The position numbers and the translations under genes were made by a program. The notes under the pieces were generated by a model that ran no database searches, was not told the origin of the DNA, and saw nothing but the letters and a program-made list of their open reading frames with translations. This document shows positions 31,389 to 50,373 of a stretch of 64,000 bases of DNA, piece after piece; the first letter of the stretch is position 1, and each line of letters opens with the position of its first letter. The DNA is from Luteitalea sp. (GTDB taxonomy: Bacteria; Acidobacteriota; Vicinamibacteria; Vicinamibacterales; Vicinamibacteraceae): NCBI RefSeq assembly GCF_044337415.1, contig NZ_JBIINP010000001.1:10321-74320 (forward strand), given 5' to 3'.

Positions 31389-33989
31389 ATGGGCTGGCTG
31401 CGCAGGTTCATCAACTCGGGCACGCGACGGGTCGCCATCGAGCAGGAGATCACCGACGAGATGACGTTCCATCGGGACGAGCTGGTCGCGGAACTCGAGG
31501 CCAACGGCTGGGCCCCTGCCGACGCACGCCGCGAAGCACAGCGCCGACTTGGCCTCTCCGGCGCCCTGGTCGCAGAAGGGGTGGCGCAGGACACGCTCCC
31601 GTGGGTCGCGACGTGGCGGCGCGAGATGCGGCAGACCTGGCGGGGCCTTCGCCGCCGCCCGGTCCTGTTCTCGACGGCCGTCCTGACACTCGCCCTGGGA
31701 GCCGGTGTGCTCCTGGCGACGGCCACCGTGGTCGATCGCCTGTTGCTCGCTCCCCTGCCCCTGCCCGGTGCCACCCGGCTGGTCGTGCTCGACGAGACCC
31801 TCAACGGCCAGAAGGTCGGCGGCAACCCGGCGCGCACCGCCGACTACCGTCGGGAACTCGGTGGCGTGCGGGGCGTCATCGGCGTCTACGGCGAGCAGGT
31901 GGTGCTCGGCCGCGGCACCGACGCGAGGCTGGTGCAGGTGCTGCGCGCGGTGGGCCCGTTTGTCGACGTGCTCCAGCTCACGGCGGCTCGAGGGCGCGTC
32001 CCGACCGACGACGAACAGCGCGACGGCGCCGCGGTCATCCTGCTCACCGACCGCGGCTGGCAGCGCCTCTTCGGGCGAGCTTCGTCGGTCGTCGGGAGCC
32101 AGGTCACGCTCAGGGGGGCCTCCCATCAGGTCGTGGGCGTCCTGCCCGAGTCGGTGGGCTACCCGGCGGATATCGACGTGGTCGCGTCGTCCGGGCCTGA
32201 CTATCAGCGTGCTCCTCGAGGGGGCAACTGGCTGCAGGTGATCGGCCGTCTGGCGCCGGGCGCCACACTCGAGAGCGCCGAGCAGGAAGCCCGGGCCGTT
32301 GCACGTCGCTTCGGCGAAACCTATCCCGAGCACGACCGCAACCTCGACGTCCGCCTCACTGGCTTGCAGGCCTACGAGACGCGCGACATCAGGACCCCGC
32401 TCCTGCTGCTCTTCGGCGCGGCCGTGACCGTCTTCCTCGTCGTCTGCGTGAACGTCGGCGGGTTGCTGTTCGTGCGGGCGATGGCCCGCGACCACGAATC
32501 ATCGGTGCGTGCCGCCCTCGGCGCCGGGCCCTGGGCGATGGCGCGCCTCTCGCTGCACGAGGCTGCCCTCATCGCCGTCGCCGCCCTGCCGGTCGCCTGG
32601 TACATCGCCAGCCTGGTCCTCGGCTGGTTGCAGCGGACGCTCGCCGAGGATGTCGGGGCGCTGGGCCAGGTGGCGCTGGGCCGACGGACCCTTGGCGTGG
32701 GCCTCATCATGCTGCTGGCGACGACGCTGGTACTGGCGGTGTGGCCGGCGTGGCATGTGGTGACGCGCCCCGTCCGGCCCGGCATCGCCCTCCATGCCGC
32801 CACCGATTCGCCGAGCCGTCGCCGGGTCCGGCGAGCGCTGGTCGGCACTCAGGTGGCCTGCAGCACCGTGCTGCTCGTCCTCGCCCTGCTGTTCTCCGTC
32901 AGCCTGCGCGAGATGCTCCAGCGCCCGCGAGGCTTCGATGCGACCAACGTCGTCGCCATCCGGTACGACCTGGATTGGGAGCAGCCCAAGGGCGACATCG
33001 ATCGGCTGGCCCAGCGCGTCCTCGCCGCCGTCGATGGCACCCCCGGCGTGGTCGCCGCGGGTGTGGTCGATCGGTTCCCGCTGCAGGGCGGCACCCAGTC
33101 GGCCGGTGTGCAGATCTACGGGGAAGCCGATGTGGCGGCCGAACGCGCCGACGTGTCGATCCGATCGGCCACACCGGAGTACTTCAGCGCCATCGGGATC
33201 CCCCTGCTGGCGGGGCGCGTGTTCGTCGATGGCGAGGCCGCGGCACAGCGGGCCGAGATCGTCGTCTCGGCGACGTTTGCCCGGAAGCACTTCGGGACGA
33301 GCGACCCCATCGGCAAGCGGGTGTGGCTCCGTTGGAAGGGCAACACGCCGGAGTGGTCCGAGGTGGTCGGCGTCGTGGGCGACGTGCGCCAGTCGTTCCG
33401 GGACGAGTCGGCGGTTCCCGAGGTCTACCGCCCCTGGTCGCGCGCCTACTGGCCGCTGCTGCACGTCGCGGTCCGCACTGACGGGGCGCCCGATGCGATG
33501 CGGCGCCTCCGCGGCGCGCTGCAGCAGGCCATCCCCGATCAGCCGCTGGCCTCGCTGGGCCCCCTGGATGAAGCCATCGACCGCGGGAGTCATCAGGCCC
33601 GAGCCCTGACCCAGGTGATGACGGCCTGCGCCGCGGCAGCCGCGCTGCTGGCCGTGGTGGGCTTGTACGGCCTGCTGGCCAGCGAGATGTCCGCGCGTCG
33701 ACGCGAGGTCGGGATCCGGTTGGCCCTCGGCGCGCGCACGTGGCCGCTGCGCGCCTGGCTCATCCGACCGGGACTCTGGCTGACCCTGGCAGGCGTGCTG
33801 ATCGGCGTGGTGGCGAGTGTGCCGGCGGCGCGGATCCTCGAGCAGCAGCTGTTCGGCGTGCGCAGCGGACACATCGGCGTGCGGGTCACGGCGGCCCTCG
33901 TGCTGCTCCTCGCCGGAGCGGTGGCCGCACTCGTGCCGGCCTGCCGGGTCGTCACCGACCGCGCCCTCGGCGGGCTGAGGTACGAGTGA
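31389..33989 (+). CDS. Duplicated MacB/FtsX-type ABC permease (ADOP-like)
   Basis: EITDEMTFH prefix domain, AVLTLALGAG, VCVNVGGLL, VRAALGA, VVGVVGDVR, GLYGLLA, RRREVGIRLALGA. Confidence 0.9.
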   Translation: MGWLRRFINSGTRRVAIEQEITDEMTFHRDELVAELEANGWAPADARREAQRRLGLSGALVAEGVAQDTLPWVATWRREMRQTWRGLRRRPVLFSTAVLTLALGAGVLLATATVVDRLLLAPLPLPGATRLVVLDETLNGQKVGGNPARTADYRRELGGVRGVIGVYGEQVVLGRGTDARLVQVLRAVGPFVDVLQLTAARGRVPTDDEQRDGAAVILLTDRGWQRLFGRASSVVGSQVTLRGASHQVVGVLPESVGYPADIDVVASSGPDYQRAPRGGNWLQVIGRLAPGATLESAEQEARAVARRFGETYPEHDRNLDVRLTGLQAYETRDIRTPLLLLFGAAVTVFLVVCVNVGGLLFVRAMARDHESSVRAALGAGPWAMARLSLHEAALIAVAALPVAWYIASLVLGWLQRTLAEDVGALGQVALGRRTLGVGLIMLLATTLVLAVWPAWHVVTRPVRPGIALHAATDSPSRRRVRRALVGTQVACSTVLLVLALLFSVSLREMLQRPRGFDATNVVAIRYDLDWEQPKGDIDRLAQRVLAAVDGTPGVVAAGVVDRFPLQGGTQSAGVQIYGEADVAAERADVSIRSATPEYFSAIGIPLLAGRVFVDGEAAAQRAEIVVSATFARKHFGTSDPIGKRVWLRWKGNTPEWSEVVGVVGDVRQSFRDESAVPEVYRPWSRAYWPLLHVAVRTDGAPDAMRRLRGALQQAIPDQPLASLGPLDEAIDRGSHQARALTQVMTACAAAAALLAVVGLYGLLASEMSARRREVGIRLALGARTWPLRAWLIRPGLWLTLAGVLIGVVASVPAARILEQQLFGVRSGHIGVRVTAALVLLLAGAVAALVPACRVVTDRALGGLRYE

Positions 33990-35245
33990 TGCCCGACGTC
34001 ACCCTTTCTCCGGCAGAGCGTCGCCGCCGCCGTTGGCAGCGCTGGCGCGTCCCGGCACTGATCGGCGCCCTGGTGATCGGCGGCACGCTGGGCGTGATGC
34101 GGCTTGCTCCGGCGTCTCCCTCCGTGGATGGCAGTCCGTTGTGGTTCGACACCGTGCAGCGTGGGGAACTCGTGCGGGAGGTGCGCGGCACCGGCTCCCT
34201 GGTGCCCGTGGACACGGCGTGGATTCCGGCCGCCACCGATGGGCGGGTCGGGCGCATCCTGCTCCGCCCGGGAGCATCAGTCGAGTCCGACGATGTGATT
34301 CTCGAGCTGCAGAACTCCGCATTGCAGCAGGAGGTGATCGACACGGGGCTGCAGCTTGCTGCCGCCGAGGCCCGCCTCACGCGAGCCGGTGCCGACGCCA
34401 CCACCACCCTGCTCGCGCAGGAGGCACTCGTGGCCCGCACCGAGGCCGAGTACGAGGAGGCTCGGGCCGACGCCGATGCGGACGCCGCGCTCCGCGTCGA
34501 CGGCCTGGTGTCTGACCTCCAGCATCGCCGGTCGTCCGCGCGTGCCCGGTCCCTGCAGGCGCAGGTCGCCGCCGAGCGCAAGCGCCTGGATGTCGGCGAG
34601 CGCATGCGCCCCTCGCAACTGGCCGAGCAGCAGGCGGAGGTCTCGCGCATGCGGGCGCTGCTCGCCCTCAAACAGGAGCAGCTCGGGCTCCTCCACGTGC
34701 GCGCCGGCATGCGGGGCGTGCTGCAGGCGGTGCCCGTTGAGGTCGGCAGCCAGGTGACGGCCGGCACCAACGTGGCGCGCGTCGCCGATCCCTCCCAGCT
34801 CAAGGCGCAGGTGCGCGTGCCGGAGACGCAGGCGCGCGACGTTCAGGTCGGCCAGGTGGCGCGTGTCGACACGCGAGCCGGCGTGACGGAGGGACGCGTC
34901 TCGCGGGTCGATCCGGCGGCCGTGTCAGGCACCGTGCTGGTCGACATCACGATCGTCGGCGAGATGCCGCGTGGGGCCCGCCCCGACCTGTCGGTGGACG
35001 GCGTCATCGAAATCGAGCGCCTCGTCGACGTCCTCTACATGTCGCGCCCCTCGCAGGGGCCGGAGGGCGGCACGATCAGCGTCTTCCGGACTTCGCCCGG
35101 GGGCATGGCCGACCGCCAGACGGTGCGCCTCGGCAAGGGCTCGGTCCGTCACATCCAGGTCGTCGACGGCTTGCGCGAGGGCGACCGCGTCGTGCTCTCC
35201 GACATGTCGGACTGGGACCAGGTCGACCGCATCCGGATCAGGTAA
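33989..35245 (+). CDS. Efflux periplasmic adaptor (HlyD/MacA family)
   Basis: TM segment, VRGTGSLVP, GRVGRILLRPG, coiled coil, RVDPAAVSGTV, GLREGDRVVLS. Confidence 0.88.
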   Translation: MPDVTLSPAERRRRRWQRWRVPALIGALVIGGTLGVMRLAPASPSVDGSPLWFDTVQRGELVREVRGTGSLVPVDTAWIPAATDGRVGRILLRPGASVESDDVILELQNSALQQEVIDTGLQLAAAEARLTRAGADATTTLLAQEALVARTEAEYEEARADADADAALRVDGLVSDLQHRRSSARARSLQAQVAAERKRLDVGERMRPSQLAEQQAEVSRMRALLALKQEQLGLLHVRAGMRGVLQAVPVEVGSQVTAGTNVARVADPSQLKAQVRVPETQARDVQVGQVARVDTRAGVTEGRVSRVDPAAVSGTVLVDITIVGEMPRGARPDLSVDGVIEIERLVDVLYMSRPSQGPEGGTISVFRTSPGGMADRQTVRLGKGSVRHIQVVDGLREGDRVVLSDMSDWDQVDRIRIR

Positions 35246-35287
35246 CGCCTTTCACACGGGCCGCACGGGCCCCTTTCCCGATACCCC

Positions 35288-36022
35288 ATGTCCCAGCCTC
35301 TGATTCGACTCGACGGTGTCCGCAAGATCTTCGCTGGCGAGGACGTCGAAACCCACGCGCTCGACGGCATCGACCTGACCATCGACTTCGGCGAGTACGT
35401 CGCCATTGCCGGGCCGTCCGGCTGCGGCAAGTCCACGCTGCTGTCGATCCTCGGCCTGCTCGACACGCCGAGCGAAGGCCGCTACCTCCTGAACAACCGC
35501 CCCGTGGAGAGCCTGTCGGCGGCCGAGCGGGCGCGCACCCGCAACCGCGAGATCGGGTTCATCTTCCAGAGCTTCAACCTGATCGGCGACCTGACGGTCT
35601 ACGAGAACGTCGAGTTGCCACTGACCTACATGGGGATGTCGGGCGCGGACCGCACGTCACGGGTCACCCGGGCGCTCGAGCGCGTCGGCATGGCACACCG
35701 CGCCCGCCACCTGCCCGGTCAACTGTCGGGAGGCCAGCAGCAGCGCGTGGCCGTGGCCCGTGCGGTGGTGACGCAGCCGTCGATCCTGCTGGCCGACGAG
35801 CCGACCGGGAACCTCGACTCGCACAACGGCGAGGCCGTGATGCAGTTGCTGCGTGACCTGCACGCCGACGGCGCGACGATCTGCATGGTCACCCACGACC
35901 CGCGGTATGCCGCGCACGCGACGCGGTCGGTGCACCTGTTCGACGGGCGGGTGGTGCCGGATGACCACGCGGGTACCACGACCGGCGTGGGGGGAGCGGC
36001 CGCAGGCGCGCGCCGGGACTGA
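35288..36022 (+). CDS. ABC transporter ATP-binding protein (MacB/LolD-like)
   Basis: GPSGCGKST, FIFQSFNL, LSGGQQQRVAVARA, ADEPTGNLD, VTHD. Confidence 0.95.
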   Translation: MSQPLIRLDGVRKIFAGEDVETHALDGIDLTIDFGEYVAIAGPSGCGKSTLLSILGLLDTPSEGRYLLNNRPVESLSAAERARTRNREIGFIFQSFNLIGDLTVYENVELPLTYMGMSGADRTSRVTRALERVGMAHRARHLPGQLSGGQQQRVAVARAVVTQPSILLADEPTGNLDSHNGEAVMQLLRDLHADGATICMVTHDPRYAAHATRSVHLFDGRVVPDDHAGTTTGVGGAAAGARRD

Positions 36023-36052: not shown

Positions 36053-37669
36053 TCAGAGGTAGGCGGCGCCCACCATGATCTTGCGGACGCGCATGTAGGG
36101 CGCGCCGTGCGAGATGTGATTGATCTGGACCGGCTGGCCCTTGGCGTCGCCGGTCGTGCCGTGCATCTCCCAGGAGCCCTTGTTGGAGACGGCGTCGAGG
36201 TTGCCGTAGAAGTCCGTCGTGATCGCGTTGTAGGTCACGTCGGCCACCATGCGGGTCTTCTTGCCGTTCTTGATCTCCCAGAACGCGTCGCCGCCGAACT
36301 GCCCGTTGTAGCGCTGCTGGTCGATGGAGTAGCTGCCGCGCCCGTCGATGAGCAGGCCGTCCTTCGTGTCCGCGATGATCTCCTCGGCGCTGGGGGCCTT
36401 GTCGTCGCCCGGCTCGACGTGCACGTTGGGCATGCGCAGGAACGGATAGTTGCGCCAGGAGGTGGCGAACGTGCAGCCGCGGCTCTCCTTCTCGCCCATG
36501 AAGTGGGCCGTCTCGCGGTTGGTCTGCAGCCCCACCAGGACGCCGTCGCGCACGATCGGCCACGACTGCGTCTTCACGCCATCGTCGTCGTACCCCACCG
36601 TGCAGAGGGCGCCGGGCATGGTCCGATCGGCCGTGACGTTGAAGAGCTTGCTGCCGTACTTCAGCTTGCCGACGTCCGACACCTTGATGAAGCTCGTGCC
36701 GGCGTAATTGGCCTCGTAGCCCAGGATGCGATCGAGCTCGGTCGGGTGGCCGATGATCTCGTGGATCGTCAGCATCGAGTGCGACGGCGTCATCACGATG
36801 TCCTTCAGGCCGGCGGTCACCGACGGCGCCATCGCGTGCTCGACCGCCTCGGCGGCGATGCGGTCGGCGTTCTCGAGCATGCCGCCGCCGGTCACCACCT
36901 CGTAGCCGCCCGTCCGCGCCTGGACGGTGTAGGTGCGCGTCTTCACCTTCCCGCCCGCGCGCGCCGTCGCCGTGTAGCTCGGCGCCATGCGCCACGTTTC
37001 CTGCTCGATGTAGGAGCCCTCGCTCGAGGCGAAGTACTTCCACTCGTAGTCCTGGGCGATCGACGACTGCGTGCGGATGATGCCCTTGGTCTTCATCAAC
37101 TGCTCGTTGATGCCGAGCAGGAAGGTGATCCGGTCGTCGAGGCTCACCGTCGCGGGATCCACCGTGATCGGCGTGGCCCAGTAGGTCTGGTAGCCCTGCG
37201 TCGGCGTGAGCTTCACGTCGAAGCGCTTGGCGACGGCGCTGGCACGCGCCACGTCCACCGCCTGCCGGGTGATGGCCCGCACCTGTTCCTCGGTGACCGA
37301 CGGGCTGCTGGCGAAGCCCCACACACCGCTGTGGAGCACGCGCACGCCGAAGCCGGCGCTCTCGTTGCGGCCGCCCCCGCCGCCGAACCCACCGCCACCA
37401 CCACCGCCCCCGCCGAACCCGCCGCCGCCCACGATGCGATCACGCACGGTGACCGAGTCGCTGACGTTGCGCGTGAAGCGGACATCGCAGTAGGTGGCCC
37501 CGAGGCGCTTGGCTTCGCCGAGCGCGATGTCGGACAGGCCCCTGAACTTCGACTCCAGCACCTTGCCCTTGGGCGACTGCGCGACGAGCGCGGCGACCAG
37601 GTCGCTGGAGGCGAGCGCCATCGAGGTGGCGCCCACGGTCTTGAGGAACTCGCGACGATTGCTGGACAT
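36053..37669 (-). CDS. TldD-family metalloprotease with twin-arginine signal peptide (paralogue 1)
   Basis: MSSNRREFLK Tat motif, GFGVRVLHSGVWGFAS, HEIIGH (36746-36763), SWRNYPFLRMPN, SYSIDQQRYNGQFGG. Confidence 0.9.
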   Translation of the reverse strand: MSSNRREFLKTVGATSMALASSDLVAALVAQSPKGKVLESKFRGLSDIALGEAKRLGATYCDVRFTRNVSDSVTVRDRIVGGGGFGGGGGGGGGFGGGGGRNESAGFGVRVLHSGVWGFASSPSVTEEQVRAITRQAVDVARASAVAKRFDVKLTPTQGYQTYWATPITVDPATVSLDDRITFLLGINEQLMKTKGIIRTQSSIAQDYEWKYFASSEGSYIEQETWRMAPSYTATARAGGKVKTRTYTVQARTGGYEVVTGGGMLENADRIAAEAVEHAMAPSVTAGLKDIVMTPSHSMLTIHEIIGHPTELDRILGYEANYAGTSFIKVSDVGKLKYGSKLFNVTADRTMPGALCTVGYDDDGVKTQSWPIVRDGVLVGLQTNRETAHFMGEKESRGCTFATSWRNYPFLRMPNVHVEPGDDKAPSAEEIIADTKDGLLIDGRGSYSIDQQRYNGQFGGDAFWEIKNGKKTRMVADVTYNAITTDFYGNLDAVSNKGSWEMHGTTGDAKGQPVQINHISHGAPYMRVRKIMVGAAYL

Positions 37670-37677
37670 GGCTGGCC

Positions 37678-39033
37678 TCAGACCGCGGGAGAGACGGACG
37701 TCATCGTGAAGTCCTCGATGCGCATGGCCGGGATCATGGCCGTGCCCGGCTGGTCGTAGGCCTCCCCGGTGTGCATCGGCTCGGGCGGCCCGAGCGCGCT
37801 GATGTTGTTCAGGCCGACCACCGGCGTCTCGTTCCAGCGGAAGTTCTGCACAGGGGCCGTGATCTCGCCGTTCTCGATGAGGAACAGGCCGTCGCGCGTC
37901 ATGCCGGTGTAGAGGATCGACATCTGTTCCACCGGTCGCATGTACCAGAAGAACGAGACGAGCAGGCCGCGCTTGGTCGTCTTGATCATCTCCTCGACCG
38001 ACGTCGTGCCCCCGTCCATCACCAGGCTGAGCCCGGGCGGCGTCGCCGTGGGCTGCTTGCCGGTCTTCTGCGCCCAGTAGCGGCTGTAGTAGAGGTTCTT
38101 GACGACACCCTTCTCGATCCAGGTGACGTCCTGCGCGGCGAGGCCGTCCTCGCCGATCGGCGACTGGCGCAGCACGGGATGGTTGATCACCGAGCGGATG
38201 GTGACGTTGTCGCCGAACAGCTTCTCGCCCACCTTGGTCTGGCCGCGTTCCTTGCCGCTCATGAAGCTCCGGCCTTCCTCGGCCGACCGCGCGTCCATGG
38301 ACGTCAGCAGCAGAGAGAGGAAGCGGGCCGCCGGCCGCGACTCGAGGATCACCGTGTAGTCGCCGGGCTCGATGGCGCGTGGCTTCTGCGACTTCAGCGC
38401 CTTGTCCGAGGCGCGCTCGGTGATCGAGACGGGGTCGATCTGCGACACGTCCTTGAGCCCGGTCTGCCCTGCCCACCCGGACCCGGTGCCATCCGGCGTG
38501 CGGCACGTGAGGATCAGGCTGGCCTCGGCGTAGCGGAAGTACGAGAACAGGCCCTCGCTGTTGGCCGTGGCCTGCGTCCAGTGCAGCTTCGGGATGTAGC
38601 CGGCGCCGACCACACCCTTCTTCTCGCAGATGTCGAGGCTCTTCTTGACCATCGCGGCCCGCTCGGCCGGGCCGAAGTTGGCCGTGCGGTCGATCACGGC
38701 CTCGACGGGCACGTAGTTCTGCGGCGGCTTCACCAGCGGCATCGTCTCCGGGTTGTCGGGCTTGCGCCTGGCCAGGGCCTGCGCTTCCTCGATCGCCGTC
38801 TTGAGCGAGGCGTCGTCGAACTGGTGCGTCACCGTGCTGGCGCTCTTCTGCCCGTAGTACACGGTGATGTTGACCTGCTGGTCGTGCTCGATCAGGTTGG
38901 CCGTGATGCTGGAGTTGGCGTACCGCGTGGCCGAGCGCTCGCCGCCCTGGAAGTCGACCTCGACCGCGTCGGCCTTGGCCATGTTCAGGATCTTGTCGGT
39001 GATCGCCTTCACTTCTTCGCGTGAATAACTCAT
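37678..39033 (-). CDS. TldE/PmbA-family protein, no signal peptide, no HExxxH
   Basis: [51 protein letters not shown]. Confidence 0.88.
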
Positions 39034-39055
39034 GAAGTCCTCGGACAATCCGTGT

Positions 39056-39112
39056 GTAGCCGTCGGACTTGTCCGACGGTGGCCTCACGCGCCGGACAAG
39101 TCCGGCGCCTAC
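39056..39112. repeat. Inverted REP doublet (REPIN/BIME-like), GTAG-type
   Basis: GTAGCCGTCGGACTTGTCCGACGG on + (39056-39079) and GTAGGCGCCGGACTTGTCCGGCGC on - (39089-39112), with a 9-nt spacer. Confidence 0.8.
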
Positions 39113-39116
39113 GAAC

Positions 39117-40724
39117 CTAGGAGAATGCCGCGCCGACCATGACCTTGCGGATCAGGCAGGGCGACGAGCCGTGCGACGGGTAGTTGGACTGGACGGGCTG
39201 CCCCTTCGCGTCGCCGTCCATGCCGTGGTGCTCCCAGCTCTCGGGCGGGCCCACGGCATCGAGGTTGGCCCAGAAGTCGGTGGTGATGGCGTTGTAGGTG
39301 AAGTCGGTGACCATGCGCGTCACCTTGCCGTTCTTGATCTCCCAGAAGGCGTTGCCGCCGAACTGCCCGTTGTACCGCTGCTGGTCGATGCTGAAGCTGC
39401 CCGAGCCCTCGACGAGTACGCCGTCCTTGACGTCGGCGATCATCTGGTCGAGCGTCGGCGACCCGGGCTTGCCCGGCTCGAGCTGGATGTTGGGCATGCG
39501 CAGGAACGGGTAGTTGCGCCAGTGGTTGGCGAACGTGCACCCGCGGCTCTCGGTCTCACCCATGTAGTGCGCGGTCTCGCGGTTGGTCTGCAGGCCGACC
39601 AGGATGCCCTCCTGGATGATGGGCCACCGCTGCGACTTCACGCCATCGTCGTCGAAGCCGACGGTGCCGCACGCGCCCACGTGCGTGCGATCGGCGTACA
39701 CGTTGAGCAGCGGACTGCCGTACTTCAGCTTCTTCAGGTCGGACAGCTTCACGAAGCTGGTGCCCGCGTAGTTGGCCTCGTAGCCGACGATGCGATCCAG
39801 TTCGGTGGGGTGCGCGATGATCTCGTGGATCGTCAGCGCGAGGTGCGACGGCTTGAGCACGAGATCCTTCAGGCCCGCCGACACCGGCGCCGCCAGGCTG
39901 TGCTCCACGGCCTCGGCTGCGACGCGTTCGGCATTCCCCTTCAGGTCGGCCTTCACCAGGAACTCGTAGCCGGCCGTCGACGCGCCCGGCGTGTAGATGC
40001 GCGTCTTCACCTGGCCCTTGCTGCGCGCCGTCGCCGAGCACCCGCACGAGCAGTAGTACAGGCTCTGTTCGATGAAGGAGCCTTCGCTGGTGACCAGGAA
40101 CTTCCAGTCGTGCGAGAAGCTCACCTGCGCCGTGGCGAAGAGCACCTGCTTGTTCTTCTGGATCTCGCTCGTCGCGTCGGTGAGGATCGCCAGCTTCTCC
40201 TCGAGCGGCACCTCGAACGGGTCGCGCTGGTGCGGCGTCTCGTAGAACTCGTCGTAGGCCGGCACGGGCGCGAGTTTCACGTCGAAGCGCTTGGCCATGG
40301 CGCTGGCCTTCGCGATGTCGGTGGCCTGCTGCACGATGCGGCGGATCTCCTCAGGCGTGACGAGCGGGCTGCTCGCAAACCCCCACACGCCCGAATGGAC
40401 GACGCGGACGCCGAACCCGAAGGTGTCCGAGATGCCGCCGCCCGGCACGGCGCCGAAGCCGCCGAAGCTGAAGCCCCCGGCGCTGGTCAGCTGTCCGTTC
40501 CGCACGTTCAGGGCCTGGGAGCGCTTGCGGCCGAACCGGATGTCGGCGTAGGTGCAACCGAGGCCCTTGGCCTGCCTGAGCGCGTCGGCGCCCCACGTGC
40601 GCCAGGGCCCGGAGCGCGCCCGCGGCGACTGGGCCGACACGGGAGCGAGCCAGAGGTCGGACAGCGTCAGGGCCACCCCGGCGGCGCTGGCTGTCTTGAG
40701 GAAGTCCCGTCGATTCTGCGGCAT
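39117..40724 (-). CDS. TldD-family metalloprotease with twin-arginine signal peptide (paralogue 2)
   Basis: MPQNRRDFLK Tat motif, GFGVRVVHSGVWGFAS, HEIIAH (39810-39827), HWRNYPFLRMPN, SIDQQRYNGQFGG. Confidence 0.9.
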   Translation of the reverse strand: MPQNRRDFLKTASAAGVALTLSDLWLAPVSAQSPRARSGPWRTWGADALRQAKGLGCTYADIRFGRKRSQALNVRNGQLTSAGGFSFGGFGAVPGGGISDTFGFGVRVVHSGVWGFASSPLVTPEEIRRIVQQATDIAKASAMAKRFDVKLAPVPAYDEFYETPHQRDPFEVPLEEKLAILTDATSEIQKNKQVLFATAQVSFSHDWKFLVTSEGSFIEQSLYYCSCGCSATARSKGQVKTRIYTPGASTAGYEFLVKADLKGNAERVAAEAVEHSLAAPVSAGLKDLVLKPSHLALTIHEIIAHPTELDRIVGYEANYAGTSFVKLSDLKKLKYGSPLLNVYADRTHVGACGTVGFDDDGVKSQRWPIIQEGILVGLQTNRETAHYMGETESRGCTFANHWRNYPFLRMPNIQLEPGKPGSPTLDQMIADVKDGVLVEGSGSFSIDQQRYNGQFGGNAFWEIKNGKVTRMVTDFTYNAITTDFWANLDAVGPPESWEHHGMDGDAKGQPVQSNYPSHGSSPCLIRKVMVGAAFS

Positions 40725-40741: not shown

Positions 40742-42478
40742 CTAGCGCTCGCGATGCAGGCGGCGCAGGATCCACTCGAAGCCGAGCACGGCGAGCACGA
40801 GCGCGGCGTACCACCAGGTCCGCGTCACGTGCCAGCGCGCGCCCGGCGGCGCGTCCAGGGCGGCCCGCAGCGCCGAGAGCGCGCGAGGCGCCTCGGCGTC
40901 GGTGGCCGCAAGGGCTCCCACGCTGGCCTGGTGGCGGACCACATCCGGCCACGCGCCAACCAGTGCGGGAGGGCTTACGTCTATCACGGCTGCGTCCTCG
41001 GCCACCACTCGCCCTTGCTCCATCGTGCGAGCGGCGACGTTGACTCGCCGTCCTGCCGGCCAGGGCGCGGTGCCGCGCCACTGGCCCGGCGCCGGCGACC
41101 ACAGGGGGACGGACTGCCCCCACGCGTCGATGGCCTCACCCGGCGTGACCCGCACGTCGGCGGCCGCCGTGTCCGGACCTGTCGTGACCGCGAGGCCCAC
41201 GACCCGTCCGTCTTCCGAGTACCCCAGCCAGGGCCGGAGCGACAGCGGGCGAGGTTGCTCGAGCGCCAGCGACGTCACCAATGCGCGCCATCCGCCCGCG
41301 AAGTCCGTGCCCGCATCCGCCCGCCAGCGCCAGGCGTCGAGCGCGCTGATCAGCACGATGCGGCCGCCGCCTGCGGCCCGTCCCCAGATCACCGGCGTGC
41401 CCTCGTCGAGATACGCCAGCGGTTGCGCGTCCGTTGCCGGGCCGGGCGCCAGCCACTCCCGGACGTGCCAGCGGTGACTGCCGATGTGGGCGGGCTGCAC
41501 CGCAGCGGCGGTGCGCACCAGGCCGACGGGCTGCGGCCACAGGCGGGTCCAGGGGCCGGCCGTCGGCGGCGCGTCGAGCACCAGCACCACCGTGCGTCCG
41601 CGCTCCTGCACGTCGGCTGCGAGGCGCGTCACGTCCGCGGAGGTCAACGCCTCGACGCCCCCGGCGATGGTGAGGTGCGCCAGATCGCGGCCCGACGCCA
41701 CCTGGGCGTCGTCGGCGCCCGTGGTCAGGCCTGGCGCGACGCGGGTCTCGCTTCGCACCGTGAGCCCACGGGCGCCCTCGAGCGCGAGGCGTGCGAATCG
41801 CGCGCCCCAGGACGGGCGCGCCTCGAGCACATCGACCGCGATCTGCAGATCGCGGACACGGACATCGACGTCGGCGGGCGATGCCGGGCGCACCACGCCC
41901 TCCCCCTCCCACGCGGCCGATATGCGGAGCCGGACATGGCCGGGGCTCACAGGGAGCCAGGGGACGCGCACGGCCAACGGCGGCGCCTGCCCCGGCGCTG
42001 TCGGAGCAGAGGTCCCGGTCGCGACCTCCACGTCGCGAGCCGTGTCGACGACGCGAACGCGGACCTGCCCTCGCGCTGATGGAACGGCGGCAAGCCTCAC
42101 GAGGATGTCTGTCGTGACACCGACGGCCGCGTCGACAGGCGCCCCGACGTGCGCCATCGCCAGCGCATCGCCGGCAGGCCGGACGACCATGGCCGCGCCA
42201 CGCTCACGCAACAGGGTCAGCGCGGCTCCTGCGTCGCCGACGACGATGCGCGCGGCGACGTCGGTCGCTGCCGCGGGATCGTCGCCATCGGCGCGGCGCA
42301 CGTCTGCCCACGGTGCGGCAGCGGCCAGGCGGGCGACCTCCGCCGCCGCATCGGGGACGCCGGCGAGCACGGTCGCCTCGATGACCGGCCGACGCGCACG
42401 CGCGCAGCCGGGGTCGAGCAGGCCGCCGGCCACGCCGAGTATCCCGAGCGCGCGCAGGCTGACGCGCAGCCACCTCAT
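40742..42478 (-). CDS. Membrane-anchored protein, degenerate glutamine-amidotransferase-like fold member of MoxR operons (hypothetical)
   Basis: N-terminal TM, VDVLEARPSWGARF resembling the EGRPRWEYRF motif of such proteins, WRWR, C-terminal TM ending FEWILRR. Confidence 0.55.
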   Translation of the reverse strand: MRWLRVSLRALGILGVAGGLLDPGCARARRPVIEATVLAGVPDAAAEVARLAAAAPWADVRRADGDDPAAATDVAARIVVGDAGAALTLLRERGAAMVVRPAGDALAMAHVGAPVDAAVGVTTDILVRLAAVPSARGQVRVRVVDTARDVEVATGTSAPTAPGQAPPLAVRVPWLPVSPGHVRLRISAAWEGEGVVRPASPADVDVRVRDLQIAVDVLEARPSWGARFARLALEGARGLTVRSETRVAPGLTTGADDAQVASGRDLAHLTIAGGVEALTSADVTRLAADVQERGRTVVLVLDAPPTAGPWTRLWPQPVGLVRTAAAVQPAHIGSHRWHVREWLAPGPATDAQPLAYLDEGTPVIWGRAAGGGRIVLISALDAWRWRADAGTDFAGGWRALVTSLALEQPRPLSLRPWLGYSEDGRVVGLAVTTGPDTAAADVRVTPGEAIDAWGQSVPLWSPAPGQWRGTAPWPAGRRVNVAARTMEQGRVVAEDAAVIDVSPPALVGAWPDVVRHQASVGALAATDAEAPRALSALRAALDAPPGARWHVTRTWWYAALVLAVLGFEWILRRLHRER

Positions 42479-44463
42479 GGGCGTCGCTCCAGGGCGGCGA
42501 GGCCGACCTCGTCCCTCGACGCCGGCAGTGGCAGCGGCACACGCGCGGTGCCGGACGCGAGCAGGCGGGCACGCAGCAATCGCGCCGCGGCGGCGCCGTC
42601 GCTTCCGGCGGCAGCCCCCTGCACGGCTTGCACCCACGTCCCGTCGGCGCGATCGAGCGCGATGAGGTCCGGTACTGCCGCTGCGACGGTGGTGGCGCCG
42701 CTGTCGAGCCGGGCCAGCAGGGCCAGCGCCCGGCGCGCCTGGGGCTCGGGCAATGGCGCCCGGGCCCAGCGTGCGGGCGCCGCCTCGGAGCGGTCGCCCT
42801 GCAGGCGCCGCGCGCCATCGAGTTGGACCGGGGTCGGCAGCGTGCGCATGAAGTAGCGGGCCTTGCCGAAGGCCGCCTGCAACGCCGCAAGCGCCCTGTA
42901 CTCGTAAGGCAGTGCTTCCCTGAGATCGGCGTCAGTCAGGCGCGTCTCGGCCTGCGCCATCTGCCGGACGGCGGTCGTGAGGTCGCCCTGGCCGCGGTTG
43001 TCGAGGCGGCCGGCCTCCACCTCGTGCGAGTGGGCGGCCTCCTCCTCCTCGTCCTCGACCTCGCCACCGAGCATGAAGACGAACTCGGCGCGCACGCGGC
43101 GCTGCGCGATGGCGAGTGCCTGGGCCTCGCTCAGGTAGGCTGCCGCCGTCATCCGCGGACGTCGCTCCAGGAGTCGCTCGGTGAGCAGGATCACCATGCG
43201 CTGGCTCAGCGCGAACTTCTCCTCCGGCTCTGGCAGGCTGAAGTCGCCGGCCGCCTGCGCCCCTTCCCGCGCGATCTCGATGAGGAAGCGCTCGGATTCG
43301 CCGGCGCCTTCCGCGCCCGGCCGGGCGTCGTGCGCCACCGCGTGGTAGGCCACCGAGTCGCCGGGGCCGAGGCCCAGTGCGGCCAGCTCCACCACGTGGT
43401 CTCCTTCCCACGTGGTCGGCGACCGGCGCTGCAGGCGCACGGGCCACTCGCCGTCCTCGAAGGTGAAGCTCTCACCGCTGCCGGACACCTTGGTGTAACG
43501 GAGTCGCAGTTCGCGGAGGCCAATGTCGTCGGCGGCCACGACATGGATCGAGACCTGGCCGGTGGCCGCGGCTCGCTTGAGGTCAGCGCCTGGCGCCGTG
43601 ATCCGGACGTCTGGAGCCGCGTCGGCGCGCACGATCACGACGATCGTGGCGAGTGGCGTGCCTGTGGCGGTGCCCAGCACCAGGGCGTCGGACTGATGGA
43701 CGTCGAACGTCGCCCGCGCGGTCGTGCCCGTGGTCTCGACCACCAGCGGTGTCGCCCCGAGCCGTGCCTGTGCGCCTGCGGGCCAGCCCTCGACGCGCAC
43801 GTCGAGACGCGCGCCGGCGAGCGCCTCGATCCGCGTGGGGGCATCCAGTTCCTGCACCGATTGGCGGGAGTAGGCCGGCGGACGCACGGTGACGTGCCAG
43901 CGGATGCCGCTGCCTCCACCGCCGGTCGCAGGGTTCGAGGCGCCGTCGCTGCCGTGGCCCTGAGCCGGGCGCGCGGCCGGGAGCCACCATGGGGCCATCG
44001 CGGCGAGCGCCAGGGCGAGGAGGGCTGCGCGCCAGCGCCGCACGGAGACGGGCCGAGGCCACGACGCCGCACCGAGGGCGCCGCGGACCTGCCGCGTCAG
44101 GTGGGTCTCGATCGACGGGTCGAGCGTGCTCCCCAGTTCGTGCCAGGTCCGGAGCGCGTTGCCGAGCGTGGGCGTGTGCGCCTCGGTCTCGGTGATCAGT
44201 GGGGTGAGCGAGCGCAGTCCCCGTGTTGCCAGGAGCCCCGCTACCGTCACGCAGGCGCCAGCCGCGCCAGCCGGCAGCATCGCCGACCCTCCGTACGTGG
44301 ACACGCAGGCATGCACCAGGCGCCCCACGGCCATGCCCACGACGAGGTGCCACGTGACGAGGGCGAGGCGCCATCGCTGCTGCGCCGTTGCGAGCCACGT
44401 GTGGATCCACGCGCGGTCGGCACTGGGACTGCCGCCGCCGACGCGCGGTTCGTCAGGCGGCAT
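42475..44463 (-). CDS. DUF4175-like membrane protein (hypothetical)
   Basis: TMs, VRPPAYSR, DAAPDVRITAPGAD, ADDIGL, LGPGDSVAYHAVAHD, SQRMVILLTERL, QRRVRAEFVFMLGGEVEDEEEEA. Confidence 0.6.
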   Translation of the reverse strand: MPPDEPRVGGGSPSADRAWIHTWLATAQQRWRLALVTWHLVVGMAVGRLVHACVSTYGGSAMLPAGAAGACVTVAGLLATRGLRSLTPLITETEAHTPTLGNALRTWHELGSTLDPSIETHLTRQVRGALGAASWPRPVSVRRWRAALLALALAAMAPWWLPAARPAQGHGSDGASNPATGGGGSGIRWHVTVRPPAYSRQSVQELDAPTRIEALAGARLDVRVEGWPAGAQARLGATPLVVETTGTTARATFDVHQSDALVLGTATGTPLATIVVIVRADAAPDVRITAPGADLKRAAATGQVSIHVVAADDIGLRELRLRYTKVSGSGESFTFEDGEWPVRLQRRSPTTWEGDHVVELAALGLGPGDSVAYHAVAHDARPGAEGAGESERFLIEIAREGAQAAGDFSLPEPEEKFALSQRMVILLTERLLERRPRMTAAAYLSEAQALAIAQRRVRAEFVFMLGGEVEDEEEEAAHSHEVEAGRLDNRGQGDLTTAVRQMAQAETRLTDADLREALPYEYRALAALQAAFGKARYFMRTLPTPVQLDGARRLQGDRSEAAPARWARAPLPEPQARRALALLARLDSGATTVAAAVPDLIALDRADGTWVQAVQGAAAGSDGAAAARLLRARLLASGTARVPLPLPASRDEVGLAALERRP

Positions 44464-45637
44464 CGCGTGCCTCCACCGCAGGCTCACGACTGTCGCGCGC
44501 ACCGCGCCGCCACCACTGCTCCCCTACCAGCAGGAGCAGGGCCAGCGCCCAGCACCAGCGTGTGTCCAGTCCCGCGGGCAGCGTGTTCGCGGTAGGCGGC
44601 TTCCCGTCCCGTGTCAGTCGGGCGAGGTCGGCAGCACTCCACGTCATGGGTACCTGCTCGACCTCGGGGCGAGCGAGCGCCTCGCTTGCGACGAGGACGC
44701 TCCACAAGGCCAGCGGCGATCCGGGCGTCGCCGCCAGCAGCAGCTCCACGCGGTTGCCCTCCGCCCAGCCGGCGAGCAACGGCCGTCCCTGCGCATCGGC
44801 CGCGAGGAGCCGGGCCGCCGCCGGCATGCGCACGCTGCGCGCGTCGGGTCGCGAACGCTCGGCGGCCTCCCGGATGCGCGGGTCGGTGGCCAGCGCGTCG
44901 AGCAGCATGGCGGCGCCGGACGTGGCCGGTGCAGCGGCGGCATCCGGAGATGGGCTGCCGGGCAGGTTCACTCGAACGGCCACCTCGCTGCGCGACGCCA
45001 GTCGCGTCGCCGTCTCGCGCAGCCGCGCGGCGACGGCCGCGTCGCCGGGGGCGGCGGCAACGCTGAGGGGGACGGCCACCGCCGGCCGGGCGGGCGCGTC
45101 GATCGGAGCGAACCTCAGGCCCACGTGCCCGGGCACCGCGTCCAGCGCACGTGGCGGCAGGGCCGTGGCACGACCGCTCCAGGCGAGCGCAATCTCGGTG
45201 CGCGATTCGCGGGCGGCGACGGTGGCACGCGCACTGGCGTCCGCGAGCGCCTGCATCGGCGCGGCTGCCGTCAGGACCTCGGACGATGAGGCGGTGCGCT
45301 GCCATTCGCCGACCACCGATCGCGCGTTCGCCGCCGCGGATGTCTCCACGACGATCACGCGATGCAGGCGCGATCGCCAGGCGTCCAGGCGCCCCGCGGT
45401 GACGACGGTCGGCCCGGCGGCCGCCGCGACGATCAGCAGCACGATGGCGGCGCGCAGCGCGAGCAGTGGCCAGTCCTGCACGCGCTGCAGCCGGCGCGCC
45501 ACGGGCGACGAGGCGCGCAGGAACCGGAGCGTGGAGAAGGGCCGCAGGGTGGGCTGCCGTCGCGACCACAGGTGGGCGACGAGCGGCAGCACGACGGCGA
45601 TCGCCAGCGCCCCGGCCCACGGGAGGGCCCAGTTCAC
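44453..45637 (-). CDS. BatA (N-terminal double-TM) domain protein
   Basis: GTG start overlapping the DUF58 stop; LPLVAHLW...PFSTLRFL...LLALRAAIVLLIVAAAAGP BatA signature; C-terminal TM (LLLVGEQWW). Confidence 0.75.
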   Translation of the reverse strand: MNWALPWAGALAIAVVLPLVAHLWSRRQPTLRPFSTLRFLRASSPVARRLQRVQDWPLLALRAAIVLLIVAAAAGPTVVTAGRLDAWRSRLHRVIVVETSAAANARSVVGEWQRTASSSEVLTAAAPMQALADASARATVAARESRTEIALAWSGRATALPPRALDAVPGHVGLRFAPIDAPARPAVAVPLSVAAAPGDAAVAARLRETATRLASRSEVAVRVNLPGSPSPDAAAAPATSGAAMLLDALATDPRIREAAERSRPDARSVRMPAAARLLAADAQGRPLLAGWAEGNRVELLLAATPGSPLALWSVLVASEALARPEVEQVPMTWSAADLARLTRDGKPPTANTLPAGLDTRWCWALALLLLVGEQWWRRGARDSREPAVEARDAA

Positions 45638-46544
45638 CGCGCCCCTCCGGCCAGGGCCGCGCGCTGCTGCGAGAACGCGCGCAGGACGGCATCGAGCGGC
45701 CTGTCGGTGTGCGCCTCGACGAAGGTCACGCCCTCGCTGGCGGCAAACGCCTGCCACTGCGCGATGAATGCCGCCAGGCGGCCGGCGTAGGCCTCGCGGA
45801 TCGCCGGCACACTCGTCACCAGTCGCTCACCCGTTTCGAGGTCCTCGAACGCGACGTCGCCCCCCGTCGGAAGTGTCCGCTCTTCGGGCGCGAGCACATG
45901 GAAGAGCACCACTTCGTGGCCCATGCGGCGCACCTCGCGCACCGCGCTGGCCGTGTCCTCGTCATCGCCGAACAGGTCCGAGACGACCGCCACGAAGCCG
46001 CGCCGTCCGAGTCGAGTCGCCGCCGTGCGAATACCACGACCGAGTGCGGTGCCGCCTCCTGGCTCGAGACGATCGAGTTGCCCGAGCAGTCGCACCAGGT
46101 GCGGGCGGCCGGTGCGCGGTGGCAACTGCAGGCGCGGCTGGTCGGCGTGCGCCACCAGGCCCACCGCCTCGCCCTGCTGGACCAGCAGGTACGCCAGGGC
46201 TGCGGCCAGCAACGCCCCCACGCGCAGCTTGGTGACGCCACTGGTCGTGGACAGGGTCATCGATCGGCTCGCGTCGACGGCGAGCATCACCGGCCACTCG
46301 GTGGTCTCCCGGTACACGCGGGTGAACAGGCGATCGGTCCTGGCGTAGTGCTTCCAGTCCAGGTGCTTCAGGTCGTCGCCCGGCAGGTAGGGGCGCATCT
46401 GCTGGAACTCGGCGCCCGACCCCGTGAACGGGCTGCGATGCGCGCCGAGGCGGGTGCCCTCGACGATGAGGCGGGCGGCCAACTCGAGGTCGGCGATGCG
46501 GGCCAGCAGCGCCGGGTCGAGGGCCAGCGTCGAGGACGAGCCCA

Positions 46545-46545
<1 letters not shown>
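45634..46545 (-). CDS. DUF58 vWA-like protein
   Basis: GAHRSPFTGSGAEFQQMRPYLPGDDLKHLDWK, MIDAS-like VDASRSM, VVSDLF, FEDLETGE. Confidence 0.9.
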
Positions 46546-47537
<992 letters not shown>

Positions 47538-47603
47538 GTCTGGCTGCGATTGTAGCAACCGGACCTCGAGCGTCTACACGACGACGGGGCGCCGGGCGTT
47601 TCG

Positions 47604-47633
47604 TTGACAGCCTCGAAACCCCCGCGCTACGCT
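47604..47633 (+). promoter_or_regulatory. Sigma70-type promoter for murQ
   Basis: TTGACA (47604-47609), 18-nt spacer, TACGCT (47628-47633). Confidence 0.55.
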
Positions 47634-47671
47634 TCACCGGTTCGCCGCGATCGCCCCACGAGTCACCCTTC

Positions 47672-48622
47672 ATGCCGATGATGTCGAAGTGGGAAGCCCT
47701 CCCGACCGAAGCGATCAACCCCAACAGCCTCGCGCTCGACACCGCGTCGGTCGGCGACGTGATCGACCTGATGGTCAGCGAGGACCGGAAGGTCGTCGCC
47801 GCCGTCCATCGCGAGAAGGAACGCATCACCGCCGGCGTGCAGATGGTGACCGAGTCGTTCCGCAAGGGCGGCCGGGTGATTTTCGTCGGCGCCGGCACGA
47901 GCGGCCGTCTCGGCGTGGTCGAGGCGGCCGAGATGCCGCCGACCTTCGGCGTGTCGACCACCCGTGTGCGCGCGCTGATGGCGGGCGGCAAGGACGCTGT
48001 GTTCCAGCCCAAGGAGGGCGTGGAAGACGACTACGAGGAAGGCGCCCGCGCCATCGCCCGGCTGCGTCCCCAGAAGCGCGACGTCGTGATCGGGATCTCG
48101 GCCAGCGGCGTGACGCCGTTCGTGCGCGGTGCGCTGACGCGCGCCCGCAAGGCGGGCTTGCGCGTGATCTTCGTGACGTGCTGGCCCGGCAGCGAGTTGC
48201 AGAACTTCGTCGACCTGATCATCGCGCCCGCCGTCGGGCCCGAGGTGCTGACGGGCTCGACGCGCCTCAAGGCCGGCACCGCCACCAAGATGGTCCTCAA
48301 CATGCTGACCACCATCGCGATGGTGCGCAGCGGCAAGACCTACGGCAACCTGATGGTGGACGTGCAGGCCACCAACGACAAGCTGAAGGATCGCGCCCGC
48401 CGCATCATCTGCATGGCGACCGGCGTGGACTACGAGACGGCGGGCAAGCTCCTGAAGTCGGCCCGCAACGACGTGAAGGCGGCCATCGTCATGCAGCGCA
48501 CCGGCCTGACGCTCTCCAAGGCCCTGGCCACCCTGAAGCAGTCGCACGACTCGGTCCGCGAGGCCGTGGGCGAGGATGTCGAGCCCCGGCTGCGGGCGCT
48601 GCTGGGGCTCGACAAGAAGTAG
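47672..48622 (+). CDS. murQ: N-acetylmuramic acid 6-phosphate etherase (alternative ATGs at 47678 and 47681)
   Basis: TEAINP, GAGTSGRLG, EMPPTFG, EGVEDD, GISASG, GPEVLTGSTRLKAGTATKMVLNML, YGNLMVDV. Confidence 0.92.
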   Translation: MPMMSKWEALPTEAINPNSLALDTASVGDVIDLMVSEDRKVVAAVHREKERITAGVQMVTESFRKGGRVIFVGAGTSGRLGVVEAAEMPPTFGVSTTRVRALMAGGKDAVFQPKEGVEDDYEEGARAIARLRPQKRDVVIGISASGVTPFVRGALTRARKAGLRVIFVTCWPGSELQNFVDLIIAPAVGPEVLTGSTRLKAGTATKMVLNMLTTIAMVRSGKTYGNLMVDVQATNDKLKDRARRIICMATGVDYETAGKLLKSARNDVKAAIVMQRTGLTLSKALATLKQSHDSVREAVGEDVEPRLRALLGLDKK

Positions 48623-48625
48623 ACG

Positions 48626-50312: not shown

Positions 50313-50324
50313 CACGCGACCGCG

Positions 50325-50334
50325 AGTATATACT
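50325..50334. promoter_or_regulatory. Palindrome AGTATATACT between divergent genes (overlapping TATACT boxes and/or GntR-type operator)
   Basis: Perfect 10-bp AT-rich palindrome in a 61-bp GC-rich gap; reads TATACT on both strands. Confidence 0.5.
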
Positions 50335-50373
50335 TCGCATGCGCGTGCTCGTTCCCTCGCGCGCGCCGGATCG

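Follow-up and report, generated by a model that had tools for sequence, protein, structure and literature searches.

A TldD/PmbA metalloprotease set with predicted twin-arginine leaders in an apparent MoxR operon of Luteitalea sp.

Introduction

To our knowledge, TldD/E is known solely as a cytoplasmic peptidase, which takes part in microcin B17 maturation and in CcdA degradation. In Escherichia coli, TldD and TldE (also called PmbA) form a heterodimeric metalloprotease of MEROPS family M103, with structures in the PDB 5NJ5 series (Ghilarov et al. 2017, PMC5810440). Here we analysed three adjacent minus-strand genes of Luteitalea sp. (assembly GCF_044337415.1, contig NZ_JBIINP010000001.1, positions 10,321 to 74,320), all coordinates being those of this whole stretch of 64,000 nucleotides (nt), hereafter the window. 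Two of the genes encode TldD paralogues, TldD-A and TldD-B, each with a predicted twin-arginine (RR) leader of the kind recognised by the machinery of twin-arginine translocation (Tat), and they flank one PmbA gene that encodes no leader. Judged from the sequences, a large branch of the family, spread over several phyla, seems to have been relocated to the periplasm in the form of a cage assembled beforehand.

Features common to the locus and to E. coli TldD/E are the three-domain fold, a central helix that bears the HExxxH motif, and the clamp residues, which are Glu, Asp and Lys. A catalytic TldD gene adjoins a non-catalytic PmbA-type gene in this locus too, the pairing of the two proteins being presumed by analogy. 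Unlike E. coli TldD, with which identity is only about 22%, the TldDs described here have an Asp in place of Cys454, a leader of about 30–45 amino acids (aa) and a Gly-rich loop inserted in the N-terminal domain. In addition, two TldD paralogues flank one PmbA, and the trio lies inside a MoxR operon.

That subunits without a signal can hitch-hike through Tat is established, PaoABC being one example (PMC4273604). As in E. coli PaoABC, the hydrogenase small and large subunits and DmsAB, the leader here is on one subunit and the adjacent partner has none, and the subunits would need to be assembled before transport. Unlike the known hitch-hikers, which are cofactor-bearing redox enzymes, the cargo here would be a peptidase cage. 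The genes ahead of the trio resemble the Bacteroides aerotolerance (Bat)/MoxR-DUF58 operons (PMC11834572, PMC3557215) in that a MoxR gene of the AAA_3 family comes first and is followed by genes for a DUF58 protein and for one that carries the N-terminal double-transmembrane domain of BatA. Unlike the Bat operons, this one continues with a DUF4175 gene, a gene for a 578-aa protein and the TldD/PmbA trio. The vWA-bearing BatA/BatB and the TPR protein BatC were not detected in Pfam and NCBIfam scans, where the BatA_N protein matched PF07584 only and the downstream genes had no TPR or vWA match. The positions of all these features are listed in Table 1.

Table 1. Features of the TldD/PmbA locus and of the genes upstream of it (window coordinates)
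Feature	Position	Strand	Evidence and remarks
TldD-A	39117-40724	minus	ATG 40724, stop 39117, 535 aa; predicted twin-arginine leader and predicted catalytic TldD-type metalloprotease
TldD-A leader, MPQNRRDFLKTASAAGVALTLSDLWLAPVSA, then QSP	40632-40724	minus	Tat hidden Markov models (HMMs) and conservation
TldD-A HEIIAH (H300, E301, H305), HExxxH zinc site	39810-39827	minus	aligned to E. coli HEAVGH
TldD-A Asp505, column of E. coli Cys454 (third metal ligand), followed by Lys507	39210-39212	minus	profile alignment to 5nj5_A and column analysis
PmbA/TldE-type non-catalytic partner	37678-39033	minus	ATG 39033, stop 37678, 451 aa; without leader
TldD-B, second predicted catalytic TldD paralogue	36053-37669	minus	ATG 37669, stop 36053, 538 aa; predicted twin-arginine leader
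TldD-B HEIIGH	36746-36763	minus	HExxxH aligned to E. coli HEAVGH
TldD-B Asp508	36146-36148	minus	third-ligand column
Sigma-70-like promoter match (TAGACG, 16 nt spacer, TG-TACAAT)	47549-47576	minus	consensus match only
MoxR-type AAA+ ATPase, first gene	46545-47537	minus	Pfam AAA_3 6.5e-62, AAA_lid_2
DUF58/vWA-like protein	45634-46548	minus	Pfam DUF58 3.8e-48, VWA_2
BatA_N protein, N-terminal double-transmembrane domain	44453-45637	minus	PF07584 1.4e-12, TIGR02226 3.8e-12
DUF4175 large membrane protein	42475-44463	minus	PF13779 5e-13
578-aa protein, hydrophobic helix at each end, multidomain middle	40742-42478	minus	no family match
Spacer TldD-A/PmbA, 81 nt, long GC-rich hairpin	39034-39116	minus	minimum free energy -48.9 kcal/mol, z-score -4.4

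Results and discussion

Identity, catalytic site and fold of the trio

TldD-A, PmbA and TldD-B each contain the three PmbA_TldD Pfam domains (first, second and third), all above the Pfam cut-offs. A first-pass annotation, made from the DNA letters alone, had described the trio as two leader-bearing TldDs around one leaderless TldE, and our analysis confirmed both this arrangement, with gene boundaries exact to the base and all three genes on the minus strand, and the TldD/TldE-type identity, with the catalytic residues intact in both TldDs. The first-pass annotation missed the eight-gene MoxR operon, the clade that extends across phyla and the Asp as third metal ligand, and its interpretation as a whole is partly supported.

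Among 70 homologues, residues H300, E301, H305, E308, D310, D505 and K507 of TldD-A are invariant. E308, D310 and K507 correspond to the E. coli clamp residues Glu270, Asp272 and Lys456, which indicates that the clamp is kept. The column of E. coli Cys454 is occupied by Asp not only in TldD-A and TldD-B but also in the third TldD of the genome (TldD-C); the occurrence of Asp in place of Cys in some TldD homologues was remarked in passing by Ghilarov et al. 2017 (PMC5810440).

The best PDB match of TldD-A by sequence is E. coli TldD (2.5e-17), and a profile of the clade aligned with 5nj5_A over its full length (1.3e-47). The AlphaFold2 model of TldD-A has a mean predicted local distance difference test score (pLDDT) of 85 and a predicted template modelling score (pTM) of 0.83, and its best Foldseek match is again E. 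coli TldD (1.4e-36, TM-scores 0.71/0.79). The two TldDs reach 61 and 55 bits on the NCBIfam TldD model NF008006 (cut-off 513) and 116 and 134 bits on the archaeal TldD model NF040952 (cut-off 635), and PmbA scores 40 bits on the NCBIfam PmbA equivalog, whose cut-off is 438. Because these scores lie far under the equivalog cut-offs, we regard the proteins as a divergent subfamily.

A protein database search revealed that TldD-A is 95% identical to a protein of Luteitalea sp. TBR-22. TldD-A and TldD-B, which share 57% identity, group in the family tree in a supported three-member clade with one other representative, and are therefore lineage-specific paralogues. TldD-B has a glycine-rich insert, GGGGFGGGGGGGGGFGGGGG, in its N-terminal domain (residues ~81-103, 37360-37430), at a point where the loop of E. 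coli TldD is short. The corresponding loop of TldD-A (residues 81-95, SAGGFSFGGFGAVPGGG) has low pLDDT in the model.

Predicted twin-arginine leaders

TldD-A begins with MPQNRRDFLK and TldD-B with MSSNRREFLK, and residues 3-10 of each (Q-N-R-R-D-F-L-K and S-N-R-R-E-F-L-K) match the S/T-R-R-x-F-L-K motif nearly exactly. The leader of TldD-A scores above the cut-offs of both curated Tat models (Pfam TAT_signal, 23.0 bits with a cut-off of 22.7; TIGR01409, 24.5 bits with a cut-off of 16.7). In Vicinamibacterales loci the RR leader is kept in 63 of 69 TldD-A orthologues and in 50 of 52 TldD-B orthologues, and the remaining ones come from truncated or frameshifted contigs or carry motifs that were missed by the search pattern. 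The motif is not fortuitous: in the 70-sequence alignment, which covers two phyla and includes Flavobacteriaceae, conservation at R5, R6 and F8 is 90% or more. Across orthologues and phyla the remainder of the leader is variable and RR-x-F is fixed, and signal peptides behave likewise. The RR leader is also present in relatives from Dokdonia, Polyangia, Nannocystaceae and Gemmatimonadetes, and leaderless relatives are without the entire N-terminal extension of about 45 aa.

The AlphaFold2 model agrees with a separate leader: residues 1-40 of TldD-A are detached and have low pLDDT, and the mature domain, from about residue 41, is above 90. The leaders end in VSA|QSP (TldD-A) and LVA|QSP (TldD-B), which fit the -3/-1 rule for the predicted cleavage. 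Besides LVA|QSP, at residue 30, TldD-B offers ALA|SS, at residue 20, as a second candidate site, and the conservation of its segment ASDLVxxLxAQSP is unusual among signal peptides. In both proteins the hydrophobic stretches of the leader are short and weakly hydrophobic, and none of them reaches the hydropathy threshold used for membrane helices. TatC is encoded in the genome (G000:C207, E 4.4e-70). We consider Tat targeting of the TldDs likely.

In-frame start codons that would skip the leaders exist downstream in both genes. They were rejected on account of the conservation of the leaders at the protein level and the position of the start codon, 2-6 residues before the RR, in the orthologues. 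Thus the RR motifs that the first-pass annotation had called clear (NRREFLK and NRRDFLK) are conserved and lie at the true starts of the proteins, and the conservation speaks against the downstream starts that it had named as a possible objection.

PmbA as a shared partner

The PmbA sequence was searched for an HExxxH motif and none was found, and its best PDB relatives are the PmbA-type chains 1vpb, 1vl4 and 3qtd. The start MSYSREEVK, or a close variant of it, without a hydrophobic leader, is fixed in about 70 orthologues, and in many of them a stop codon lies 0-20 codons upstream of the Met. Because the orthologues share this start Met, many with a stop just upstream, there is no room for a hidden PmbA signal. 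The absence of a leader, already seen in the first-pass annotation, holds for every orthologue and extends to other phyla (four phyla in all). In the loci compared, PmbA either overlaps the adjoining genes or is 8-81 nt away from them.

We compared the gene layouts in 66 Vicinamibacterales loci with room on both sides of PmbA. More than one layout was found: TldD-A, PmbA and TldD-B occur in that order in 35/66 loci, TldD-A and PmbA alone in 23/66 and PmbA and TldD-B alone in 8/66. As read from these layouts, the minimal unit is one TldD plus one PmbA. Among related loci PmbA is 73-75% identical and the TldDs 65-70%, so that PmbA is more conserved than either TldD. Both the layouts and this conservation fit a single PmbA that would be able to pair with either TldD. 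The sharing of one TldE by two TldDs, as had been proposed from the letters alone, is in line with these results; export of the TldDs, co-export of the partner and a role on periplasmic or imported peptides, which belonged to the same proposal, are still what we infer.

The genome has only five PmbA_TldD genes: three TldDs, each with an RR leader, and two PmbAs, neither of them with one. No leaderless TldD is thus encoded, and if PmbA depends on a TldD partner in the way known from E. coli, only RR-leader ones are to hand. The second TldD/PmbA pair lies on another contig (G000:C11; L006 2240-5130, minus strand) and consists of an RR-leader TldD (MIDRRRFVQS, with HESVGH and the Asp ligand) and a leaderless PmbA. 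This pair sits between genes for a copper-type P-type ATPase and an amino-acid permease, and the MoxR module is not nearby.

Distribution of the subfamily and the Asp/Cys pattern

A search of 5.8 billion proteins gave at least 6805 matches among 8000 scored candidates, and an exhaustive search of representatives at 50% identity gave 761 clusters at E <= 1e-30. The relatives are of two sorts, namely proteins of about 530-550 aa with an RR leader and proteins of about 480 aa without the whole extension. An RR-leader TldD with HExxxH, the third-ligand Asp and an adjacent leaderless PmbA was found in Dokdonia and other Flavobacteriaceae, in Polyangia, in Nannocystaceae and in one Gemmatimonadetes genome. 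Within Acidobacteriota the subfamily is present in 34 of 151 genomes. Outside Vicinamibacterales we examined 18 Acidobacteriota loci, ten with an RR-leader TldD and eight with a leaderless one. In all of them with a readable PmbA start, this protein has no leader.

The leaderless Cys-type TldD-like proteins of about 480 aa, which are nearest to NF040952, are the closest kin outside the RR-leader group, with 33-45% identity and the same HExxxH and Lys. They differ from it in having no N-terminal extension and in the third ligand. Among representatives with an intact HExxxH, this residue is Asp in 11 of 16 leader-bearing forms (11 Asp, 5 Cys) and Cys in 80 of 81 leaderless forms (1 Asp, 80 Cys; Fisher p 5e-10). 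In the tree the leader-bearing forms all fall in one supported clade, with about six changes of leader state and about four changes of ligand, numbers for which an independent-pairs test was underpowered. The association of leader and Asp is thus a lead given by these alignments and not an established rule. A switch from thiolate to carboxylate ligand (Cys to Asp), seen mostly in RR-leader forms, would fit an oxidising compartment.

Several relatives in the set P0125-P0274 have lost HExxxH, and three of these keep the RR leader (for example P0199, P0227 and P0251), which points to the existence of exported, catalytically dead TldD-like shells. Our literature search found no paper on an exported TldD, and a query combining TldD/PmbA with twin-arginine returned one unrelated metagenome paper. 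By its sequence features, the Luteitalea locus belongs to a very large clade of RR-leader TldD/E proteins that is visible in the databases and unstudied, the catalytic subunit being duplicated here and the genes joined to a MoxR operon.

Association with the MoxR module

The gene order at the locus is MoxR, DUF58, BatA_N, DUF4175, the 578-aa membrane protein, TldD-A, PmbA and TldD-B, and by their spacing and common strand the eight genes look like one operon, with the TldD/PmbA trio as its tail. We compared the locus with 80 related loci from Vicinamibacterales genomes, and the full eight-gene order was found in 22 of them, most of the others being truncations. Of the 66 loci with room on both sides of PmbA, 50 contain MoxR. 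Three further Acidobacteriota families also show the link between the protease genes and the module, with the genes arranged differently. In L088 the MoxR module is divergent, and in L095 and L096 TldD-PmbA stands ahead of MoxR-DUF58...DUF4175. Moreover, in Dokdonia (Bacteroidota) the order is TldD, PmbA, DUF4159, MoxR, DUF58, BatA, a 745-aa protein and a 583-aa protein, and the 745-aa protein is homologous to the DUF4175 protein of the window (BLASTP 8e-12). The MoxR module was found in none of the eight leaderless TldD loci of the Acidobacteriota sample. The genome, of 5.3 Mb, has only two true AAA_3 MoxR genes, and with that number the probability of proximity within 10 kb by chance is below 1%. 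These data make a functional tie of TldD/PmbA to the MoxR module reasonably probable.

The DUF4159 protein of Dokdonia, encoded between PmbA and MoxR (L108 13096-13716), is leaderless. In the Luteitalea genome DUF4159 occurs only on other contigs, once directly beside the second MoxR gene.

Proposed mechanism and alternative explanations

We propose that the locus encodes a divergent TldD/PmbA metalloprotease set that would be sent to the periplasm, and we place the whole chain, including the hitch-hiking of PmbA, slightly on the likely side. Folding of TldD, metal uptake and pairing with PmbA would take place in the cytoplasm, in the manner of E. coli TldD/E. TatABC would then transport the closed heterodimer (about 105 kDa) across the inner membrane by means of the one leader that TldD carries, PmbA travelling along as hitch-hiker, and the leader would be cleaved near A-Q-S-P. 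Once in the periplasm, the cage would trim or degrade unfolded peptide ends, and a single PmbA would be shared by the two alternative TldDs. The weakest part of the proposal is that the protease probably cooperates with the envelope proteins linked to MoxR.

Several observations weigh against this proposal. The pairing of TldD with PmbA is assumed by analogy with E. coli, and a TldD of Sulfolobus was reported to be active as a homodimer (PMC3497727, as relayed in PMC5810440), so that PmbA need not belong to the exported enzyme. The leader of TldD-B scores 11.3 bits on Pfam TAT_signal, under the cut-off of 22.7, and conserved acidic residues lie inside its hydrophobic region. As for the neighbourhood, the MoxR module is not nearby in seven of the ten RR-leader loci of the Acidobacteriota sample, nor in any Myxococcota or Gemmatimonadetes locus examined, which indicates that the link is not universal.

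The Sulfolobus homodimer, together with the presence of two TldD paralogues at the locus, would agree with export of the TldDs alone, as homodimers or as an A/B heterodimer, with PmbA staying in the cytoplasm, for instance as an assembly or proofreading partner that would retain TldD until it is exported, or having a separate role. Cytoplasmic signal-binding chaperones are common for Tat substrates, which would suit such a partner. However, one TldD plus one PmbA is the minimal unit conserved in four phyla, PmbA is retained in loci with a single TldD and is the more conserved of the two proteins, no leaderless TldD is found among the five PmbA_TldD genes of the genome, and both subunits are required for activity in E. 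coli (PMC5810440). We therefore hold export without PmbA to be unlikely. The Tat leader might also stay uncleaved or be cut elsewhere; TldD, alone or together with PmbA, would then remain tethered at the outer side of the inner membrane, beside the BatA_N, DUF4175 and 578-aa proteins. The cleavage site is a prediction, TldD-B has two candidates for it as well as the unusually conserved segment, and the operon partners are membrane proteins; yet both leaders end in acceptable -3/-1 motifs, and their hydrophobic stretches are too short and weak for a membrane helix by the threshold used, which makes tethering distinctly improbable. Even less probable is that the proteins are cytoplasmic and the RR-containing extension is not a working export signal. 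All characterised TldD/E proteins are cytoplasmic (PMC5810440) and the TldD-B leader falls under the Pfam cut-off, but the match to the Tat motif is almost exact in both TldDs, the motif is kept across phyla as other leader residues vary, TldD-A passes two curated HMMs, the genome encodes TatC, and the first 40 residues of the model form a detached segment of low confidence.

A separate question is whether the MoxR/DUF58/BatA_N/DUF4175 neighbourhood merely reflects synteny kept by descent and has no functional bearing on the protease. The 80 related loci are for the most part from a single order, many RR-leader TldD/PmbA pairs occur elsewhere without the module, and the classical Bat operon literature that was covered makes no mention of TldD. 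Against mere synteny, the pairing recurs in two phyla and in differing gene orders (those of L088, L095, L096 and Dokdonia, the last with DUF4159), the module is absent from the leaderless TldD loci, the chance of such proximity is small, and the genes overlap or abut. On balance we find the explanation by synteny rather doubtful.

If the tie is functional, the TldD/PmbA cage might be the enzymatic end of an envelope machine driven by MoxR. The cytoplasmic MoxR ATPase and DUF58 would act on the BatA_N, DUF4175 and 578-aa proteins; the latter would trap or unfold polypeptides of the periplasm or the membrane and deliver the ends of these to the protease, and the two TldDs would represent two specificities on a shared PmbA. 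We put this forward as a speculative scheme that is unlikely to hold. In a variant suggested by analogy with the MoxR/vWA pairs NorQ/NorD or CoxD/CoxE, which do so for their own enzymes, MoxR and DUF58 would load the TldD metal before export. The envelope machine, if real, would provide the Bat-like MoxR systems, long without explanation, with a definite biochemical output. The proposal of a periplasm-sent TldD/PmbA set, if true, would make a protease one of the few Tat hitch-hiker cargoes that are not redox enzymes, would imply an unrecognised peptide-processing or quality-control activity in the periplasm of soil and marine bacteria, and would provide MoxR/Bat-like envelope modules with a partner enzyme.

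Structure of the operon and neighbouring genes

Four junctions of the eight-gene cluster overlap: moxR/DUF58 and DUF58/BatA_N by GTGA, BatA_N/DUF4175 by 11 nt and DUF4175/578-aa by ATGA. The other gaps are 15 nt (578-aa/TldD-A), 81 nt (TldD-A/PmbA) and 8 nt (PmbA/TldD-B). The promoter-like site just upstream of moxR is the only one found between 35500 and 48500. It ends 12 nt ahead of the moxR ATG at 47537, and the predicted operon mRNA may thus be nearly leaderless. The next gene upstream of moxR is divergent and murQ-like.

The hydrophobic segments of the BatA_N protein are at residues 3-21 and 63-81. The 578-aa protein, which is conserved upstream of TldD-A or PmbA in Vicinamibacterales, matched no Pfam or NCBIfam family even at loose thresholds. 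Its AlphaFold2 model has a pLDDT of 84.9, and Foldseek gave only domain-level similarities, to flavodoxin/GATase1-like folds and to an immunoglobulin/macroglobulin-like sandwich, with no informative whole-chain structural match. The macroglobulin-like matches were considered as a link to protease traps and set aside, the similarity being only at the level of domains. A profile comparison of the 578-aa protein with the equally placed 583-aa protein of Dokdonia was non-significant (E 0.25).

The spacer between TldD-A and PmbA folds into a predicted hairpin with no U-tract, and close relatives have different GC-rich hairpins or palindromes there, some of them repeated. A role as terminator or conserved riboregulator was rejected, given the missing U-tract and the differing hairpins of the relatives, and an Rfam search of the window found nothing. 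The spacer hairpin looks like a REP-like (repetitive extragenic palindromic) intergenic element or an mRNA-stability element.

On the plus strand, and convergent on the TldD-B end of the cluster, positions 31389-36022 encode a duplicated permease of the MacB/FtsX type (866 aa), an HlyD-like periplasmic adaptor and an ABC ATPase, named from their translations. At the other end the operon adjoins a set of amino-sugar genes (47528-50537), which encode a SIS-domain etherase called MurQ-like from its translation and lying on the plus strand, a protein of the glucosamine-6-phosphate isomerase family and a BadF/BcrA-type ATPase.

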